Source: a virus. Taken from it: DNA of 44,400 nt. The position numbers and the translations under genes are program-made. Where the stretch lies: the IMG/VR virus record IMGVR_UViG_3300037502_000804, positions 1-44,400 of that record, one strand, 5' to 3'. Shown one piece after another: positions 2,086-30,728 of this stretch (position 1 is the first letter of the stretch; each line of letters starts with the position of its first letter). Below the pieces are notes generated by a model, which searched no databases, was not told the DNA's origin, and saw only the letters and a program-made list of their open reading frames with translations.

Positions 2086-2790
2086 ATGAGCTTAATTCAG
2101 TCAAATATTAAAACAATGTCTAGTCTCGAAATTTCAGAATTAACTGGAAAGCGACACGACAATGTAAAAAGACTTATCGAGTCTTTTAGTCGAGATATTG
2201 AAAGTAGAAAAGCCTTAATAGCACGTCCTCACAGTGAGGTTATGCAAAAAGAAGTTAATGGTCGTATTTATGAGTACGAAGTTTATATTTTTGCTGGAGA
2301 GCAAGGGAAATTAGATTCTATTACCGTTGTTGCTCAGTTATGCCCTGAATTTACAGCAGCACTTGTTAAGCGTTGGTATGAACTAGAAAACCAATCACTC
2401 AAGCCACAACTACCAGACTTCACAAATCCAGTTGAGGCTGCTCGAGCATGGGCAGATGAAGTTGAAGCAAAGCAGATTGCACAAGAGCAATTAAAGCTTG
2501 CAGCTCCGAAGGTTGAATACTTTGACCGTGTAGCGGATGTGAATAATTACATGAATGCCACTACAGTTGGTCAAAAGGTTGGCATGAGTGGCACGGCATT
2601 GAATAAGCAGTTAGAGCAGTTCGATGTTTATAACCGAACAATCAAGACAGGTCGCGTATTTCAACAATGGTTTATCGACAAGGGCTTGGGCGTGATGAAA
2701 AAGACAGACAATGGATATAACCAATCTCGTTTTACCAACAAAGGTGAGCAGTGGGTTATCCAAAAACTAACAAGCGAGGGGATTGTTTAA
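2086..2790 (+). CDS. Rha-family N-terminal domain fused to KilAC-type antirepressor C-terminal domain
   Basis: MSSLEISELTGKRHDNVKRLIE matches the Rha/pRha pattern. AAPKVEYFDRVADVNNYMNATTVGQKVGMS matches the KilAC pattern. Confidence 0.7.
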   Translation: MSLIQSNIKTMSSLEISELTGKRHDNVKRLIESFSRDIESRKALIARPHSEVMQKEVNGRIYEYEVYIFAGEQGKLDSITVVAQLCPEFTAALVKRWYELENQSLKPQLPDFTNPVEAARAWADEVEAKQIAQEQLKLAAPKVEYFDRVADVNNYMNATTVGQKVGMSGTALNKQLEQFDVYNRTIKTGRVFQQWFIDKGLGVMKKTDNGYNQSRFTNKGEQWVIQKLTSEGIV

Positions 2791-2958
2791 ATGAAAATTG
2801 AATTTGTTTATATATCAATAATCATTGGTCTTGTTCTATTTGGAATCTTTACCACTCATCACAGCATAAATGATATTCGACTTGATAGGTGTAGAGGTAA
2901 GGATGCAGGAACTCCCGTAATGGTATACGGCAGGGCTTACACTTGCACTGGAAACTAA
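2791..2958 (+). CDS. Small membrane protein (55 aa), not in ORF track
   Basis: ATG directly abuts the upstream stop. N-terminal hydrophobic helix FVYISIIIGLVLFGIF. A terminator follows. Confidence 0.5.
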   Translation: MKIEFVYISIIIGLVLFGIFTTHHSINDIRLDRCRGKDAGTPVMVYGRAYTCTGN

Positions 2959-2964
2959 AAACAC

Positions 2965-2991
2965 ATACGCCCATCGTGGCGTATTTTTTTA
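2965..2991 (+). terminator. Rho-independent terminator
   Basis: atacgcc-catcgt-ggcgtat stem-loop plus ttttttt. Confidence 0.75.
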
Positions 2992-3094
2992 TCATAAAAA
3001 CTTTTGGTTATTAATTTACATATTAATCATTAAATTTATTTATTAGACATTATGTTATTTATATACAATAATGACGTAACAAAAGGAGAAACAC

Positions 3095-14070: not shown

Positions 14071-15507
14071 ATGTTTGATTGGTTCAAAAATAAAGAAGAA
14101 GCGCCAAAGCGAAAGCCGAAATGGAACGCTTTGTTAAATGCTATGCAAGCGCATAATGAAGGCGTGGCGATTCAGTACAAAGCGCCTTCTCTGCCTGACG
14201 GTGTTGCGCCAGATGGTCACAGTGCTATGGCAATGGATGGATTTTGCACAGCTTCGCAATATGCAGGATTAGAGCCACAGTTTTATAGCAACTTTTTGGG
14301 CTATCAAGTATTAGCTCAATTGGCTCAGTCTACCGAATATCGCCTAGTTGCTGAAACATTTGCTCAAGAAATGACGCGCGAGTGGGGTGAAGTTAAAGGT
14401 GATGACCAGGAGCGTGTTGATATTCTCATGGAGGAGTTTAATAGGCTAGATATTCGCAATCTCATCCGCAAGCACATAGAAAACGATTATTACTATGGTG
14501 GTTCTCAGCTATATATCCAGATTGAAGGTCAAGAGGATAAAACCGACTTACCTTTATTGATTAATGAGAAAGGCATCAAGAAAGGTTCATTAAAAGGCTT
14601 TACAGTCATTGAGCCGCTTTGGTCTACTCCTAGTTTTTATAATGCAAATAACGCGCTAGAGCCTGACTTCTTTAAGCCAAAACAATGGTGGGTGTTAGGC
14701 AATAATGTGCATCATAGCCGACTATTGACTCTGGTTATGCGTCCAGTTCCTGATATGTTGAAGCCAGCTTATAACTTCTATGGGATTTCAATGTCGCAAT
14801 TGATGTTGCCATATGTTCAGCGCCACCAATCTATTGTAGATGCAGTGGCTAAATTAATCACTATGTTTAGCTTGACTGGTATTAAGACTGATATGTCTGC
14901 AATCTTGAATGGTGATGAAGGTGGCGCAAATCAGTTAATGATGAGATTAAAAGCATTAGCGCTTGGTCGAGATAATCAAGGTGTTCTTGCTATTGATAAG
15001 GGTCAAGATGGTGAGGAAATCTTCCAGATCAATACGCCATTATCTGGTCTTGATACATTGCTTGATAAGTTTACACAGATGCTTGCCTACCCTTCTAAGA
15101 TTCCAGTATTAAAGATATTTGGAACTCCAACAGCTGGACTTGGTAATACTTCTGATGGTGAGATACGGGTATTTTACGATTGTGTTTCAGCACAGCAAGA
15201 AGCGTATATTTTGCCGCAGATCAAGGTTATCCTTGACTGTATGCAATTAAGCTTATTCGGAAATATTGATGAAAGCATTAAGTTTGTCTTTAACCCGCTT
15301 TATCAATTGGATGATAATGAGCAAGCAGACGTAAACTTGAAGAAAGCGCAAACGGCTCAGATTTACATTCAAGAGGGCGTGATTGATAATGAGGAAGCAC
15401 GTCAAGCTTTGAATGATGATGAAGACAGTGGGTATCAATTAGAGGGTAATGCGCCTGAGCGTGATCCTTATGTTGAAAACGAAAATATCGATATTGATGA
15501 AAAATAG
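14071..15507 (+). CDS. Portal protein (DUF1073-type)
   Basis: Size, position after TerL, and an acidic C-terminus. Confidence 0.75.
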   Translation: MFDWFKNKEEAPKRKPKWNALLNAMQAHNEGVAIQYKAPSLPDGVAPDGHSAMAMDGFCTASQYAGLEPQFYSNFLGYQVLAQLAQSTEYRLVAETFAQEMTREWGEVKGDDQERVDILMEEFNRLDIRNLIRKHIENDYYYGGSQLYIQIEGQEDKTDLPLLINEKGIKKGSLKGFTVIEPLWSTPSFYNANNALEPDFFKPKQWWVLGNNVHHSRLLTLVMRPVPDMLKPAYNFYGISMSQLMLPYVQRHQSIVDAVAKLITMFSLTGIKTDMSAILNGDEGGANQLMMRLKALALGRDNQGVLAIDKGQDGEEIFQINTPLSGLDTLLDKFTQMLAYPSKIPVLKIFGTPTAGLGNTSDGEIRVFYDCVSAQQEAYILPQIKVILDCMQLSLFGNIDESIKFVFNPLYQLDDNEQADVNLKKAQTAQIYIQEGVIDNEEARQALNDDEDSGYQLEGNAPERDPYVENENIDIDEK

Positions 15508-15509
15508 AT

Positions 15510-16280
15510 ATGGAAATAACCCTTGAGTCAATAGCGCCTAATGCATCCCTGACCAAATGGTACAGGGAGCAAATGCAAGGAATGATGGATGAGATGCGTT
15601 CTGATTTAATTCAGGACGTAGTTAAGCCTATGCGGTCTGAAATTGCTATGGATGGTATTTTAGACTGGATGGGGCATGTAATTGATGGCTTGGTTAGTCG
15701 TTGGCAAGATCGTTTAGATAAACTATCGACTCAAGTGGCGCAAGAGTTAGTGGGCAAAGCTAAAACCAACTACGACAAACGATTGTTAGGTGTTCTTCGC
15801 AAGCGTGGATTCACTGTAAACTTTCGACCAACGAAATACATGGAAGATCAAGCGCAAATTGCTTTAGGTGAAAACGTTGCTCTAATCAAGTCAATCGGTA
15901 ATGAGTATTTAGATAAAGTTCGTTCTGCTGTTTGGCGTAGTGTGAAGAATGGCTATGATGTTGAATCATTAGTCAAGCAACTCAAAGAGATTGACGGCGT
16001 AACAGATCGTAGGGCAAAGAATATTGCAAAGGACCAGACGGCTAAGTTGAATCAGGCTTTTGAGAATGCTAGGGCTGAGGAACTGGGCATTAAAGAAGCT
16101 ATTTGGTTGCATTCCAGCGCATCAAAGTCACCTAGACATGACCATGTTAAAGCGCACGGCACAAGGTTTGAGATAGAAAAAGGCTGCTATATTTCGGGAC
16201 AGTACATCCAGCCCGCATTTTTGCCGTTTTGCAAATGTAGGAAATATCTAATAATTGATATTCCTGATTCTATGGTATAA
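15510..16280 (+). CDS. Head morphogenesis protein (SPP1 gp7 / Mu F-like)
   Basis: Position after the portal gene. The region with DRRAKNIAKDQTAKLN is typical of the family. Confidence 0.65.
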   Translation: MEITLESIAPNASLTKWYREQMQGMMDEMRSDLIQDVVKPMRSEIAMDGILDWMGHVIDGLVSRWQDRLDKLSTQVAQELVGKAKTNYDKRLLGVLRKRGFTVNFRPTKYMEDQAQIALGENVALIKSIGNEYLDKVRSAVWRSVKNGYDVESLVKQLKEIDGVTDRRAKNIAKDQTAKLNQAFENARAEELGIKEAIWLHSSASKSPRHDHVKAHGTRFEIEKGCYISGQYIQPAFLPFCKCRKYLIIDIPDSMV

Positions 16281-16281: not shown

Positions 16282-16320
16282 TAAATTGCCAATAGTGGCA
16301 CAACTTTGAGAGTTAAAATT

Positions 16321-16959
16321 ATGTCTGATTTTTCCGTTGCCTTAATTAAATCTGAGTTTCGTGTGGATTCTCGCCTACTCGCTCCAGAATTAAATCACCG
16401 TCATCGCACAATACTTGAAAACATAGATAAGTATAAATCGCAATTTGAGTCACTTGGTCAGCTTCCGTTTCAAACGGAATGTGGATACAACAATTCTCAA
16501 GTTAGATTTGCTTTATTGAATGAAGATCAATGCTACTTTCTTCTAACTTTAATGCGAAACAATAATCATATTGTTGCCGCAAAGTTAAAGCTAGTTAAAG
16601 CATTTCGTGACGCTAGAACGCAATTAGCTAAGAGAGATATAGCTAGAATTGAAGGGAAACAAGTTCGACACTTGGAAACTGATGCTATTCGTGACTTGGT
16701 TGACTATGCAAGAAAAAATGGTAGCTCAAATGCAGAAATGTATTACATGACCATTACAAAGATGACAAATGCTGCTTTAGGCATTGAAGCAGGTCAGCGC
16801 GACATATTGCCTATCAGAAAATTGGATGAAATAAAGATAGCGGAAACAATGGTTAAAATTGCCATTAGTGATGGATTGAATGCTGGACTTGATTACAAGG
16901 AGATTTACAAGCTTTGCAAGGATAGGGTTTCATTTATTGCTAAGACTTTATTAAATTAG
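16321..16959 (+). CDS. Rha-family phage regulatory protein (second copy)
   Basis: ALIKSEFRVDSRLLAPELNHRHRTILENIDKY matches the Rha pattern. Start trimmed from TTG 16306 to ATG 16321. Confidence 0.65.
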   Translation: MSDFSVALIKSEFRVDSRLLAPELNHRHRTILENIDKYKSQFESLGQLPFQTECGYNNSQVRFALLNEDQCYFLLTLMRNNNHIVAAKLKLVKAFRDARTQLAKRDIARIEGKQVRHLETDAIRDLVDYARKNGSSNAEMYYMTITKMTNAALGIEAGQRDILPIRKLDEIKIAETMVKIAISDGLNAGLDYKEIYKLCKDRVSFIAKTLLN

Positions 16960-16986
16960 TTAATAACCCATATCAAAACAACTGAT

Positions 16987-17014
16987 TTGTATTTTTAGTT
17001 TGGTTTGGTATTAT
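16987..17014 (+). promoter_or_regulatory. Promoter TTGTAT-16 nt-(TGg)TATTAT driving an ORF-free unit
   Basis: Extended -10 TGGTATTAT at 17006-17014. Confidence 0.45.
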
Positions 17015-17020
17015 GGTTTT

Positions 17021-17458
17021 ATTGATCGAATCTGTGGGCGACACAGTAAGAGCAGAGCAAAGACACAAGCGGGCTAATTAATGGTTTTCCATGTAGCTTG
17101 TGCCATGCAACTATTCGCACGTTGCCGATCAATGAATCCTCTTGGGTTAAAGGTTGTACCACTAAATGACTGCTAGGAAAGACTAGCAAACTTAGAGAAG
17201 TGAATAGCACACAACAGTAACACATAGTTAAAGGTTATCTAGGTGTTCTGTATAAACCTTGTTGTATCGTGTCAGTTCACTTCATCTAAGTTAAAATTCA
17301 GACGAAAGCACAAACCCGAAAGGGATATTACGTCTTGCGAAGTGAATCAATGAAAGTGCAATCACTAGCCCTTAAACACAAAAGGTTTTAGCGCATAAGG
17401 CAAAATGCAAAGTGTGTTAGTTAAGCCAATAGAGCCACCTTCGGGTGGTTTTATTTTA
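17021..17458 (+). ncRNA. Candidate structured non-coding RNA (about 440 nt, unknown class)
   Basis: It lies in the longest ORF-free stretch of the genome (16960-17537) and is bounded by a promoter and a terminator. Contains multiple hairpins including ccc-GAAA-ggg and tgctag-gaaaga-ctagca. Locally looks more GC-rich than its flanks. Confidence 0.4.
17434..17457 (+). terminator. Rho-independent terminator
   Basis: gccacc-ttcg-ggtggt stem-loop plus ttttatttt. Confidence 0.75.
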
Positions 17459-17474
17459 TCTAAACTATTTTAGA

Positions 17475-17489
17475 TTTACTATTGAGAAT
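17475..17489 (+). promoter_or_regulatory. 15-bp motif TTTACTATTGAGAAT, site 4
   Basis: Exact match. TTGAGA-17 nt-(TGg)TAAGAT (17502-17510) lies downstream. Confidence 0.65.
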
Positions 17490-17537
17490 TATATTCAAGA
17501 GTGGTAAGATTTAGTTATTCAGTAGAAGGGGTTTGAA

Positions 17538-17744
17538 ATGATTAGTTTTTTAGAATATGCAATACCTATTTTAATAATAATTTTTAGTCTTGTTTTTATT
17601 GTTTGGTTGTTTAGATATAAGCCAAGTGATTACTTAAATCAAAGATTAATGATTATTGGATTTCCAGTATTTTTAGTGTTTGCAATAATTTTTATTATTA
17701 TTGCTATATCAATGTTGAGTTTCGGTCATTGGATTGGTGGTTAA
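17538..17744 (+). CDS. Two-TM small membrane protein
   Basis: Hydrophobic ORF with a GAAGGGG SD-like sequence. Confidence 0.6.
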   Translation: MISFLEYAIPILIIIFSLVFIVWLFRYKPSDYLNQRLMIIGFPVFLVFAIIFIIIAISMLSFGHWIGG

Positions 17745-17745
17745 A

Positions 17746-17925
17746 ATGATTAACGTAGTTTATTTGGTTTTGGTTATTCATAGTGTGTATGGAAATAGCG
17801 AGTCAATTACTAACATAACCATTCCTCAAGCAAACATAGCTCAATGTGAAGTTAACAGAAAGAACTATAAAAACACTTATAATGTGAAAGCGTCTTATTG
17901 CATCGTAGGAGTAATGCCGAAATGA
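17746..17925 (+). CDS. Small protein with N-terminal signal-like segment
   Basis: Start trimmed to ATG 17746. MINVVYLVLVIHSVYG leader. Confidence 0.5.
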   Translation: MINVVYLVLVIHSVYGNSESITNITIPQANIAQCEVNRKNYKNTYNVKASYCIVGVMPK

Positions 17926-18949: not shown

Positions 18950-20299
18950 ATGCCTCTAATTAAAGGTAGCTCACAGGATGTTATTCATAAGAACATTCGT
19001 GAGCTAATTGATTCAGGAAAACCGAAAGATCAAGCGATTGCCATAGCTTATAAAGAAGCTGGGATGGCGAATGATACTGACTTTGATAAGTTGGAAGAAT
19101 TGTTTGATCAATGGCTTGAAGAAGAAAAGAAAGAGCCAGAACATGCAATGGATAAGTCAGCTCGTAGATACGATAGGAACAATCACTTAATTGTTGATAA
19201 AACCGTTATAACAAAAGCCGCAGTAAATCCTTATATTGGCTCATCTATCCCACGCTGGAAAGAATTAGGCTTAGATCCAAATAAAGAATACATGCTATTG
19301 CGTGATCCTGAAGAACTACGCAAGTCATTAGACACATTCAAAGGTTTACAGCTTCTCAAACGTCATATCCCTGTTGACGCATCTCAACCAGAAAAAGAAT
19401 CGACTATCGGATCTATTGGCACAGACATAACAATGGATGACGAGGGCCGTGTTTGGTCATCATTGCGTGTATTTGATCAAGAAGGCATTGACTATATCGA
19501 AAGTAAGGCATTGGGAGAATTAAGCGCTGGTTACGCTTATGATGCTGTCATGAAATCGGGTACTTTTAATGGTGTGCCTTATGATGGTATTATGACGAAT
19601 ATTCATGGTAATCACGTTGCTATCGTTGAACGTGGTAGGATTGGAAGTGACGCGATTATCGCAGATTCAATAGAGGGTCAATTGATGACAATCAAACTTA
19701 AAAACGGAAGCCTTGCAAAACTGCAAAAACAGTTGGGCATGGATTCTTTGGAAGATGTGAAAAAAACTATTGTGGCGGTTCACGGTTCTTTGGCTCTTGA
19801 TGAAGATGACAAGAAAGCCGAGGACGAGGACGACAAAAAAGCAGAAGATGAGGACGATTTAGAAATCGTTGAAGATTCTGATGATGACGACAAACAAACT
19901 CAAGCCGACAAAGACAATGAGTCTGAAGCCATGCGTCTAAAAGCACGTGAAAAGCGTGAAGAAAAAGACCGTGACGAAGATAAAAAGCAAGCTCAAGATT
20001 CAGCTATTGCTATGGATGAAATGGAAAAACGCGTCATGGCTCGCGTAAACGGCATTCATAAAGCTGCTCGAGAAGTTGAGCCTTTGGTCGGTGTTATCGC
20101 TCTTGATGGCTTTAGTTCAGACCATGAAGTTTATGCTTATGCGCTTAAACAGAAAGGTGTGGAAACTAAAGGAATTAATACTGCTGGTTTAGCTGCTCTT
20201 GTTAAGGCGCATAAAACTCCAGCCGTTGCGATGGATTCAGCGCCTAAAGCTGGTAAACTCTCTGAAACTACACTTAAAGCATTACGAGGGCTTAAATAA
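18950..20299 (+). CDS. Prohead scaffold/protease-like protein (DUF2213-type) with acidic repeat region
   Basis: Position before the capsid gene. Repeat DEDDKKAEDEDDKKAEDEDD. Coiled-coil C-terminus. Confidence 0.6.
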   Translation: MPLIKGSSQDVIHKNIRELIDSGKPKDQAIAIAYKEAGMANDTDFDKLEELFDQWLEEEKKEPEHAMDKSARRYDRNNHLIVDKTVITKAAVNPYIGSSIPRWKELGLDPNKEYMLLRDPEELRKSLDTFKGLQLLKRHIPVDASQPEKESTIGSIGTDITMDDEGRVWSSLRVFDQEGIDYIESKALGELSAGYAYDAVMKSGTFNGVPYDGIMTNIHGNHVAIVERGRIGSDAIIADSIEGQLMTIKLKNGSLAKLQKQLGMDSLEDVKKTIVAVHGSLALDEDDKKAEDEDDKKAEDEDDLEIVEDSDDDDKQTQADKDNESEAMRLKAREKREEKDRDEDKKQAQDSAIAMDEMEKRVMARVNGIHKAAREVEPLVGVIALDGFSSDHEVYAYALKQKGVETKGINTAGLAALVKAHKTPAVAMDSAPKAGKLSETTLKALRGLK

Positions 20300-24545: not shown

Positions 24546-25036
24546 GCATGTTAACCGACCTTTACACAGATATGCGCCAGTATCTGCTTAAAACCTTCAA
24601 CCTGCCCGCAAATGATACAACGGTCATTAGAGGCTACAACAATCTAAACCCAATCCCTAAAAACGCCATTATCATGACTTTTATGCAAGGTCGTCATTTG
24701 GACCAGAAGTCTGTCAATTATGATGGCAATAAACAGATCATCTTTAATTCTATGCAAGGCACAATGCAGTTAGATTTTTATGGTGATAACTCAATGGATC
24801 GGGCGCAAGAAGTACAAACTCTGTGGAATAGCCCTTATACTACTGATACGCTAATTAATTGCGTACCATTGGGAAATCCGCGCATACGTGATTTATCTTT
24901 CGTTAATGAGGCTGGAATGTATGAATTGCGCTTTATGATTGAAGCCGACTTGCAATACAATACAAAGTACGAAAAAACAGTTAATATACTGGAAGACGTT
25001 TCTCAAATCGATTTGGAGTCTATCAATGCAGTTTAA
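24542..25036 (+). CDS. Virion protein of the tail completion region
   Basis: ORF with an ATGA overlap. Confidence 0.55.
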   Translation: MSMLTDLYTDMRQYLLKTFNLPANDTTVIRGYNNLNPIPKNAIIMTFMQGRHLDQKSVNYDGNKQIIFNSMQGTMQLDFYGDNSMDRAQEVQTLWNSPYTTDTLINCVPLGNPRIRDLSFVNEAGMYELRFMIEADLQYNTKYEKTVNILEDVSQIDLESINAV

Positions 25037-30301: not shown

Positions 30302-30302
30302 C

Positions 30303-30581
30303 ATGGCTCAATACGATATTCCTTTGGCACAAGTCCCGAACCAATTTTTTACCACATCATTAAATGGTGTTACTTGGGCAATCACACTAGAAACTCGATT
30401 AAATAACTTATATATCAGTTTATCTAATAATAATGATGGTGATGTATTGTTAAATCGAATATGCCTAAACCGAACTTATTTAGGGCATGGCTTTATCTTT
30501 GTCGACATAGATGGAAATAGTGATCCTGAATACACAGGCTTGGGCACTCGTTATTTACTTATCTGGACAGACGAAGTATGA
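30303..30581 (+). CDS. Small tail/baseplate protein
   Basis: GGAGG SD before ATG 30303. Track start 30240 overlaps the upstream gene. Confidence 0.5.
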   Translation: MAQYDIPLAQVPNQFFTTSLNGVTWAITLETRLNNLYISLSNNNDGDVLLNRICLNRTYLGHGFIFVDIDGNSDPEYTGLGTRYLLIWTDEV

Positions 30582-30661
30582 TTTTATGGTGCCTAGCCTG
30601 ACGAGGTGAAGATGAAGAAAGCCTATTCATCGTGGCACACCAAAATTATTTAAATTAGTTA

Positions 30662-30690
30662 TTGCATTCTCAATAGTAAATAAATATAAT
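30662..30690 (+). promoter_or_regulatory. Strong sigma70 promoter TTGCAT-17 nt-TATAAT (moron cassette 2)
   Basis: Duplicate of the 23475 promoter. Reverse-oriented 15-bp motif at 30666-30680. Confidence 0.7.
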
Positions 30691-30728
30691 GAGTTCATAC
30701 CAAGCAATTAGCTAAAAGGAAATTCAAA

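Follow-up and report, generated by a model that had tools for sequence, protein, structure and literature searches.

A predicted non-coding RNA locus of three structured modules in the head region of an Acinetobacter phage of the genus Obolenskvirus

The DNA described here (the window: 44,400 nt, from the IMG/VR virus record IMGVR_UViG_3300037502_000804) comes from an AP22-like Acinetobacter myophage of the genus Obolenskvirus. Inside its head module lies a stretch without genes, at 16960-17537, a region matched by 88 phage records. This stretch is very probably a transcribed and structured non-coding RNA (ncRNA) locus and, as far as comparison of sequences can tell, a real and unannotated one, with three conserved folded modules named dom1, dom2 and E (Table 1). 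A preliminary description of the window, made from its letters alone, had called it the longest non-coding stretch, which holds once the minus-strand open reading frame (ORF) of 68 aa at 17019-17225, which is not conserved, is discounted; the next-largest ORF-poor gaps measure 427 nt (30302-30728) and 393 nt (24546-24938), and neither has a match in Rfam.

The pattern of substitutions among homologues argues for folded RNA. In dom1, represented by 29 distinct copies, both sides of the pair have changed in 5 of the 8 pairs of stem P1 and in 3 of the 5 pairs of hairpin P2. In addition, 97.3% of the cells are paired, the observed values were reached by none of 500 column shuffles, and slid controls gave 42% at most. 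The substitutions in the dom1 helices include AU to GU (four times) and CG to UG (three times), and RNAalifold, unprompted, returned the same three helices. Hairpin P2 had already been noticed in the preliminary description (ctgtg-ggcga-cacag, 17032-17046), and it is both present and covarying in the relatives. The P4 hairpin and the GCGA of the P2 loop never vary, and a search for divergent P4 versions, carried out with the 5' block of dom1, found only loci already holding the exact P4. Between this GCGA (17038-41) and the UCGC of the P4 loop (17115-18) we infer a loop-loop pairing, which could form within one molecule or between molecules. The arm V1 was seen in 37 different alleles. When a guide or antisense role was looked for, matches of the variable arms elsewhere in the window did not exceed 12 nt, and the 37 alleles had no off-locus match in 0.78 Mb of fetched phage DNA.

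A covariance model, R1, was built from 18 non-Obolenskvirus copies of dom1 only, the family being defined by stem P1, the junction J (GAAU), hairpin P2 with an NGCGA loop, the variable arm, and the invariant hairpin GCAACUAUUCGCACGUUG leading into the 3' strand of stem P1. Applied to the window, the model gave a single match, on the plus strand at 17021-17133 and over its whole length (1-114/114), with 87.2 bits and an E value of 3.6e-19, which places the element of the window in the dom1 family.

Table 1. Features of the locus and of its surroundings (positions of the window)
Feature	Position	Strand	Description
Portal	14071-15507		Head module
Head morphogenesis protein	15510-16280		Head module
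Rha-family regulator ORF	16306-16959		PHROG 2657/518; 5' neighbour of the gene-free stretch
Gene-free stretch	16960-17537		Inside the head module
Promoter P1	-35 16987-16992; TG 17006-17007; -10 17009-17014	+	-35 TTGTAT, 16-nt spacer, extended -10 TG, -10 TATTAT; predicted start A17021
dom1	17021-17133	+	Cloverleaf-shaped four-way junction
dom1 stem P1	17021-28 with 17126-33	+	8 bp; ATTGATCG = reverse complement of CGATCAAT; junction J = AAU after the 5' strand
dom1 hairpin P2	17032-46	+	5-bp stem, loop GGCGA; D-arm position
dom1 hypervariable arm V1	17047-17106	+	At the anticodon-arm position
dom1 hairpin P4	17107-25	+	GCAAC-UAUUCGCAC-GUUGC, 5 bp; invariant; T-arm position; UUCG-containing loop; abuts stem P1
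Linker V2	17134-17166	+	Variable; 33 nt in the window; slot of a transfer-messenger RNA in phage BUCT628
dom2	17167-17294	+	UGAC, C1 hairpin 17170-88 (loop GAAAGA), CAAA, long helix enclosing variable V3 (17205-75)
dom2 helix	17191-17204 with 17276-90	+	CUUAG-A-GAAGUGAA with UUCACUUC-AU-CUAAG; as DNA CTTAG-A-GAAGTGAA with TTCACTTC-AT-CTAAG
Module E	17295-17428	+	Hairpins Ea 17300-35, Eb 17337-69, Ec 17375-17418
Intrinsic terminator	17434-17458	+	GCCACC-UUCG-GGUGGU hairpin 17434-17449, then U-run TTTTATTTTA
Promoter P2	17482-17510	+	TTGAGA-17-TAAGAT, extended -10 TG; serves the downstream small ORFs; bounds the RNA and is not part of it
Membrane-like ORF	17538-17744		68 aa; 3' neighbour, first in a string of small ORFs
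Head maturation protease	18950-20299		Beyond the small-ORF string

The long helix of dom2 shows both-side changes in 5 of its 13 pairs, with 99.1% of the cells paired and CG replaced by UG seven times. Its variants comprise GGAGUGAA/UUCACUCC and UUUUG/CAAAG in contig L047, GAAGUAAU/AUUACUUC in contig L073, and G-U variants in phage HFM1 and in locus L055. The stem of the C1 hairpin differs among alleles, its GAAAG loop being kept, with CAA before the long helix; the preliminary description had recognised this hairpin (tgctag-gaaaga-ctagca), which is present and covaries, and had placed it one position away from its actual site (about 17171-17188). Distant copies of dom2 were collected with a pairing-aware scan whose estimated chance rate was below 1% per locus. 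The segment V3 contains a transfer RNA (tRNA) or tRNA-like element in L007, L051 and L055, and many V3 inserts end in a T-arm-like GGUUCGAnnCC beside the 3' strand of the helix.

Module E, of which only three lineages were sampled, gives 27 RNAalifold pairs, 8 of them with compensatory changes, in all three hairpins. In L047 and L073, which are not Obolenskvirus, the module has 78% identity and is placed before dom2, not after it, and therefore the modules are separable, and not domains of one fixed RNA. Such arrangements show the stretch to be an array of three separately mobile structured modules.

This changes part of the picture first drawn of the locus. The proposal of a single RNA of about 440 nt is contradicted, since the homologues show the three modules separately, in differing orders and in unrelated phages, with tRNA-like genes or transfer-messenger RNA (tmRNA) as cargo between them. 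As for the nested hairpin that had been proposed, its inner part (agacg/ccc-GAAA-ggg/cgtct) is present and covaries, but its outer stem, pairing ttcacttc (17276-83) with gaagtgaa (17339-46), has to be abandoned: the downstream copy changes from GAAGUGAA...UCACU to GAAGCGAA...UCGCU within E, ttcacttc remaining unchanged, and therefore neither the outer stem nor the mutually exclusive folds built on it are supported. Instead, ttcacttc covaries with the upstream gaagtgaa at 17197-17204, which speaks against a switch between folds. Of the checks named in the preliminary description, those for covariation and for a conserved intact ORF both speak for an RNA, the former through the compensatory changes in dom1, dom2 and E.

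The constraint is strand-specific. The plus strand at 17021-17465 folds below its shuffles with z = -5.3, the value for the minus strand being -3.4. Moreover, G-U pairs are found where the opposite strand would carry A-C and are tolerated on the plus strand only; therefore, the constraint acts on plus-strand RNA. The stretch had been described as non-coding, and no conserved reading frame was found among the homologues: these have no frame in common, and the lengths of their inserts are not divisible by three. In fact, V1 lengths of 30, 31, 37, 41, 44 and so on to 81 nt break the frame between the conserved blocks, and the frame in which the invariant block is read changes from phage to phage. 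The sole recurrent ORF (36 aa, GTG start) runs across dom2 and E, and a compensatory change in hairpin Ea creates a stop that interrupts it in L047 and L073. A protein-coding reading was considered and rejected, the ORF "families" across homologues mirroring conserved nucleotide blocks, with differing frames and TTG or GTG starts.

Searches of Rfam 15 with the whole window at gathering thresholds returned no match, in agreement with the earlier remark that the stretch fits no RNA family, and at E<=10 the region 16900-17600 gave chance-level matches only (TCV_H4, rimP, Phe leader, STnc350/70), none of them to tRNA. ARAGORN found no gene in the window, which thus holds neither a tRNA (RF00005, ARAGORN) nor a tmRNA, be it one-piece or permuted (Rfam, ARAGORN). 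A packaging RNA (pRNA) of the phi29 type was not found either: Rfam gave no match, the phages with dom1 encode ordinary large terminases and portals, and only the position near head genes and the 4-nt complementary loops are shared with that RNA. The literature consulted on Obolenskvirus tmRNA and RNA-seq, on tRNA-like RNA of Acinetobacter phages and on the phiAbp1 transcriptome held no description of this RNA. Modules dom1, dom2 and E lie outside every Rfam family and represent one new RNA family (or three), whose unusual features are the invariant 18-nt hairpin, the hypervariable arm, and transfer among myo-, podo- and siphoviruses of one host genus.

The unit is delimited by a promoter and a terminator. 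Promoter P1 is kept in all Obolenskvirus relatives; its coordinates (16987-17014) had been given correctly in the preliminary description, in which the notation TTGTAT-16 nt-TGGTATTAT miscounted the spacer. The terminator reported at the end of the unit is likewise upheld, as a GC hairpin with a T-run: the relatives carry three different GC hairpin alleles at this site, with the same T-run after each, and a Rho-independent terminator is annotated there in GenBank record PP171454. A simple promoter/terminator scanner missed promoter P1, with its weak -35, and the terminator, and both were accepted on comparative grounds. Promoter P2 is conserved in all relatives and sits just 5' of the next ORF with its Shine-Dalgarno sequence and ATG. 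Furthermore, dom1 usually begins at the +1 of a sigma-70 promoter; the -10 hexamer, often within TTGACA-17/18-TATTAT, stops exactly 6 nt 5' of its first base in at least seven upstream contexts that are unrelated to one another, and in L065 a P1-like promoter and dom1 are followed by a terminator 3 nt later, an arrangement which looks like a minimal stand-alone dom1 gene. This anatomy suggests that dom1 is transcribed as its own unit. In the Obolenskvirus genomes L004, L011, L012 and L024-L028, promoter P1 and dom1 are separated by a further conserved non-coding insert of about 97 nt that contains the hairpin CTACA-ATATCA-TGTAG, and dom1 is not at +1 there.

The Obolenskvirus relatives examined (19 GenBank and 11 IMG/VR loci) hold 420-1000 bp at the same place, either unannotated or filled with mini-ORFs. 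Conservation is confined to islands, which comprise promoter P1 with the first hairpin, 17107-33 (27 nt), 17166-17208, 17275-94 (20 nt), and the terminator tail with promoter P2; these are about 100% identical even where the adjacent head protein is only 72% identical, and the sequence between them is swapped wholesale. In the close relative L029 the unit is absent, a P2-like promoter following directly after the head gene, and therefore the unit is accessory. The slot upstream of it, at 16306-16959, holds variable cargo, namely the Rha-family regulator in the window, Abp95, SR and AQ1, and unrelated small ORFs or ORFs of 268 aa in other relatives. Since this slot varies between relatives, the RNA unit heads a hypervariable accessory island within the head module. 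At the boundaries of the small ORFs (17736-17781 in the window, and other junctions), stretches of 30-45 nt are 90-100% identical, though the ORFs of the relatives differ; by their sequence, they look like module boundaries for the recombinational shuffling of the accessory gene string.

The distribution of dom1 extends well beyond this genus. A short BLAST of 17015-17140 found it in 148 GenBank phage records, all from Acinetobacter, the carriers being Obolenskvirus myoviruses, T7-like Friunavirus podoviruses (phiAB1, phiAB6, AB3, B5, APK87 and others) and the cos siphovirus HFM1. The exact P4 18-mer is present in 42 IMG/VR viral contigs, many of them not Obolenskvirus, and in 15 metagenome contigs, with full dom1 in 11. 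In 596 Gb of bacterial genomes it was met in 8 contigs from unrelated phyla, about the chance expectation, and in none from Acinetobacter. A 57-kb contig (L053/L069/L102) has the 18-mer once within apparent coding sequence (about 491-571 in L053), with the rest of dom1 absent and an R1 score of 27.7 bits, probably by chance or as a fragment.

In many members of Friunavirus, dom1 occupies the end of a conserved hairpin of 18-20 bp, located after the capsid module and before tail tubular protein A (e.g. L048, 4850-4990). Other members have other inserts there, and in phage Fanak the same hairpin bears an unrelated 29-nt tip. It looks as if dom1 had been inserted into a hairpin used for processing or termination among the structural genes. 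The hairpin is perfect in L085, L048 and L087, and some records annotate the start of tail tubular A inside dom1. Elsewhere, dom1 sits between terminase or portal and head genes. Judged by this distribution, dom1 is a mobile RNA gene that passes between Acinetobacter phages unrelated to one another, and it occurs in three settings: alone, in the tip of the Friunavirus hairpin, or heading phage operons of tRNA, tmRNA and tRNA-like genes.

As a rule, dom1 stands 5' of phage tRNA genes. Outside Obolenskvirus, L043, L061, L064, L070, L072, L079, L086, L089, L090, L092 and L100 carry ordinary tRNA genes (Arg, Met, Phe, Asn, Cys, Ser) downstream of dom1, at most 600 nt away and in the same orientation, and tRNAs lie upstream only in L046 and L084. 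With tmRNA and tRNA-like genes included, the cargo follows dom1 in 14 contexts and precedes it in one phage type only. In BUCT628 (L001, MZ593728.1), an unannotated two-piece tmRNA at 2744-3048 occupies slot V2 between dom1 and dom2 (tmRNA_permuted 123.9 bits, beta_tmRNA 94.3 bits; ARAGORN tag ANDNVFGAKTLAA), and a permuted tmRNA is unexpected in a phage of a gammaproteobacterium. Unannotated tRNA-like genes were also located inside the dom2 helix of IME-Ap7 (L007, 1901-1973; 45.3 bits, with a 6-nt anticodon loop) and after dom2 in Scipio (L014, ON036883, 1943-2010; 38.9 bits, missed by ARAGORN), for which the Brutus/Scipio genome paper reported that no tRNAs were found. The V3 insert of L055 has a CUA (amber) anticodon-like loop. 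The tRNA-like genes of IME-Ap7, Scipio, L051 and L055 may be decoys rather than working tRNAs.

Among known systems, the nearest kind is that of the phage RNAs at tRNA islands, GOLLD and ROOL, for which a function has not been established. These are large "ornate" phage and prophage RNAs next to tRNA islands, and GOLLD has a conserved and a less conserved part, with tRNAs sometimes in the linker (bioRxiv 10.1101/2024.12.08.627333). The locus described here is likewise phage-encoded, its family adjoins tRNA islands (the window itself being without tRNA), and its variable linkers hold tRNA or tmRNA in relatives; however, its modules are of about 90-145 nt, occur separately and are restricted to Acinetobacter phages, and the GOLLD and ROOL covariance models of Rfam gave no match at the gathering score or at E<=10. 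A further example of this kind comes from phage T4, whose species 1 and 2 (rnaC, rnaD) are small stable RNAs transcribed together with the tRNAs of the phage and matured by the machinery that processes tRNA. We know of no sequence relationship between these and dom1, which, unlike them, moves between phage families, has a hypervariable arm and is often first in its operon.

Another comparison is with mimics of tRNA, such as the tRNA-like domain of tmRNA and the bacterial YrlA Y RNAs. Here the likeness lies in the four-way junction of dom1, in its closing stem leading into a 5-bp hairpin with a UUCG loop, in the complementary second loop, and in the tRNA and tmRNA neighbours, whereas dom1 gets no score from the models of tRNA, tmRNA and Y RNA; its stem is of 8 bp and its loop of 9 nt, and it lacks both CCA and an anticodon arm. 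Finally, the put RNA of phage HK022 and the antitermination elements of rrn leaders are folded RNAs at or near +1 of untranslated or terminator-containing units. The position of dom1 at or near +1 is similar, but dom1 is also found far from promoters in T7-like phages and as a stand-alone gene ending at a terminator.

Taking these data together, the reading that we favour, with a probability of roughly 0.55, is that the stretch would be an accessory operon of stable ncRNAs whose core, a cloverleaf-shaped dom1, acts in trans and is aimed at a host factor. The host RNA polymerase would start at A17021 from the extended -10 of promoter P1, transcribe the independently folding dom1, dom2 and E, and stop at the terminator, the downstream small genes being driven by their own promoter, P2. 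The modules would be released or kept as stable small RNAs, presumably accumulating and being processed into separate molecules. In the predicted tRNA-like fold of dom1, the 8-bp stem would stack on the 5-bp hairpin and the D-like and T-like loops would touch. The modules could then act in trans, their target being a factor of the Acinetobacter host that recognises RNA of tRNA shape; a defence nuclease directed at tRNAs is one possibility, and a factor of translation or of tRNA processing is another. The phages carrying dom1 share a host genus but no proteins. The surface recognised would be the invariant "elbow" of P2 and P4, with fast evolution of the variable arm under diversifying pressure. 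That these modular RNAs act in trans rather than in cis is judged probable. The narrower proposal of a tRNA mimic or decoy directed against a host factor is a tentative one. Of the roles suggested in the preliminary description (regulatory, a decoy or sponge, structural), that of a decoy or mimic would be favoured over a cis-regulator by the cloverleaf shape of dom1 and by its tRNA and tmRNA neighbours.

Several observations weigh against the proposed trans-acting operon or against the folds on which it is based. P4 and the GCGA:UCGC pairing are invariant and hence beyond the reach of covariation, and the single-sequence minimum free energy fold of the window pairs the P4 bases otherwise. The likeness to tRNA is topological only, Rfam tRNA and ARAGORN being null at dom1, with a "T loop" of 9 nt and no CCA. 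The four most distant copies of dom2 came from a scan that requires pairing, which inflates the percentage of paired cells, though not the compensatory changes. Some Obolenskvirus variants have about 100 nt between promoter P1 and dom1, so that the 5' end of dom1 is not always the transcription start, and the Acinetobacter phage transcriptome paper (phiAbp1) makes no mention of a non-coding RNA. Moreover, a cis-acting leader would also account for dom1 being at +1 and ahead of its cargo in 14 contexts.

Such a leader of untranslated operons is the main rival, and we hold it to be unlikely. It would act by antitermination against Rho and intrinsic terminators in the manner of put or rrn leaders, as a 5' stabiliser, or as a scaffold for the processing of tRNA and tmRNA. 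The predicted +1 position in at least seven contexts and the order of dom1 and stable-RNA cargo, reversed in one phage type, are what it would lead one to expect, and a long untranslated transcript is otherwise exposed to Rho. Nevertheless, the dom1 of Friunavirus is not promoter-proximal, has no stable-RNA cargo downstream and lies within structural genes, whose transcription in T7-like phages is the task of the phage-encoded polymerase. The leader is equally difficult to reconcile with L065, where dom1 runs straight into a terminator, with the window, which has no tRNA cargo, with L046 and L084, where dom1 comes after the tRNAs, and with a hypervariable arm that would have no obvious role. 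The remaining readings are weaker. In one of them, which is improbable, dom1 (with or without dom2 and E) is the aptamer of a riboswitch or attenuator that controls the terminator, and hence the read-through from promoter P1 into the small ORFs. The layout of promoter, folded RNA, intrinsic terminator and genes is the classical one, and in L065, whose terminator abuts dom1, V1 holds GAGGUGGU, which could compete for the 5' half of the terminator (possibly by chance). However, every relative has promoter P2 after the terminator, the genes downstream vary among the phages, and 300 nt of exchangeable modules, even tRNA and tmRNA genes, separate dom1 from a terminator that exists in three alleles. 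No conserved alternative pairing with the terminator was found, and the switch proposed earlier is contradicted; thus, the locus does not fall within the riboswitches and attenuators.

A role at the level of DNA, as recombination or boundary sequences for cassette exchange, or as an origin or packaging site in which the complementarity is incidental or related to a cruciform, has very little probability. The near-100% identical short blocks that flank swapped segments recall recombination at conserved junctions, and similar short junction sequences occur between the downstream small ORFs. Yet only the plus strand tolerates G-U (G-T in DNA), the helices show covariation, the placing of promoters is exact to the base, the orientation matches that of all co-resident tRNA and tmRNA genes, and the carriers have unrelated replication and packaging systems. 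That the stretch is a set of decayed protein genes, or a decayed tRNA cluster, with no present function is hardly credible. Several variable inserts do end in the T-arm-like motif, and some tRNA-like genes look defective, as in IME-Ap7 with its 6-nt anticodon loop and in Scipio, where ARAGORN misses the gene; but the invariant 18-mer and the covarying stems persist across phage families with unrelated proteins, the compensatory changes imply selection on pairing, and no frame is shared.

A bolder and rather doubtful suggestion can also be made, in which dom1 would be a new, horizontally mobile class of cloverleaf RNA. Its invariant elbow would capture an Acinetobacter-specific factor (for instance, as a decoy against a tRNA-directed defence), or its self-complementary loops would mediate a multimer holding phage tRNAs, V1 being the record of an RNA arms race. 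If this were true, the Obolenskvirus locus would be an RNA "counter-defence island" collecting modules, tRNA-like genes and a tmRNA.

Obolenskvirus and Friunavirus provide the main therapy candidates against multidrug-resistant A. baumannii, and the genome papers of these phages state "no tRNA" and leave a stretch of 0.4-1 kb blank or filled with ORFs of 30 aa. The locus is under strong selection, the 18-nt hairpin being invariant across unrelated phage families. In this context, dom1 is a compact (about 90-145 nt) and experimentally tractable member of the poorly understood phage RNAs of tRNA islands, and it poses a testable question, that is, which host factor is engaged by a phage RNA whose elbow is invariant and whose arm is hypervariable. 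The locus may, in turn, affect both the host range of these phages and the practice of their annotation.

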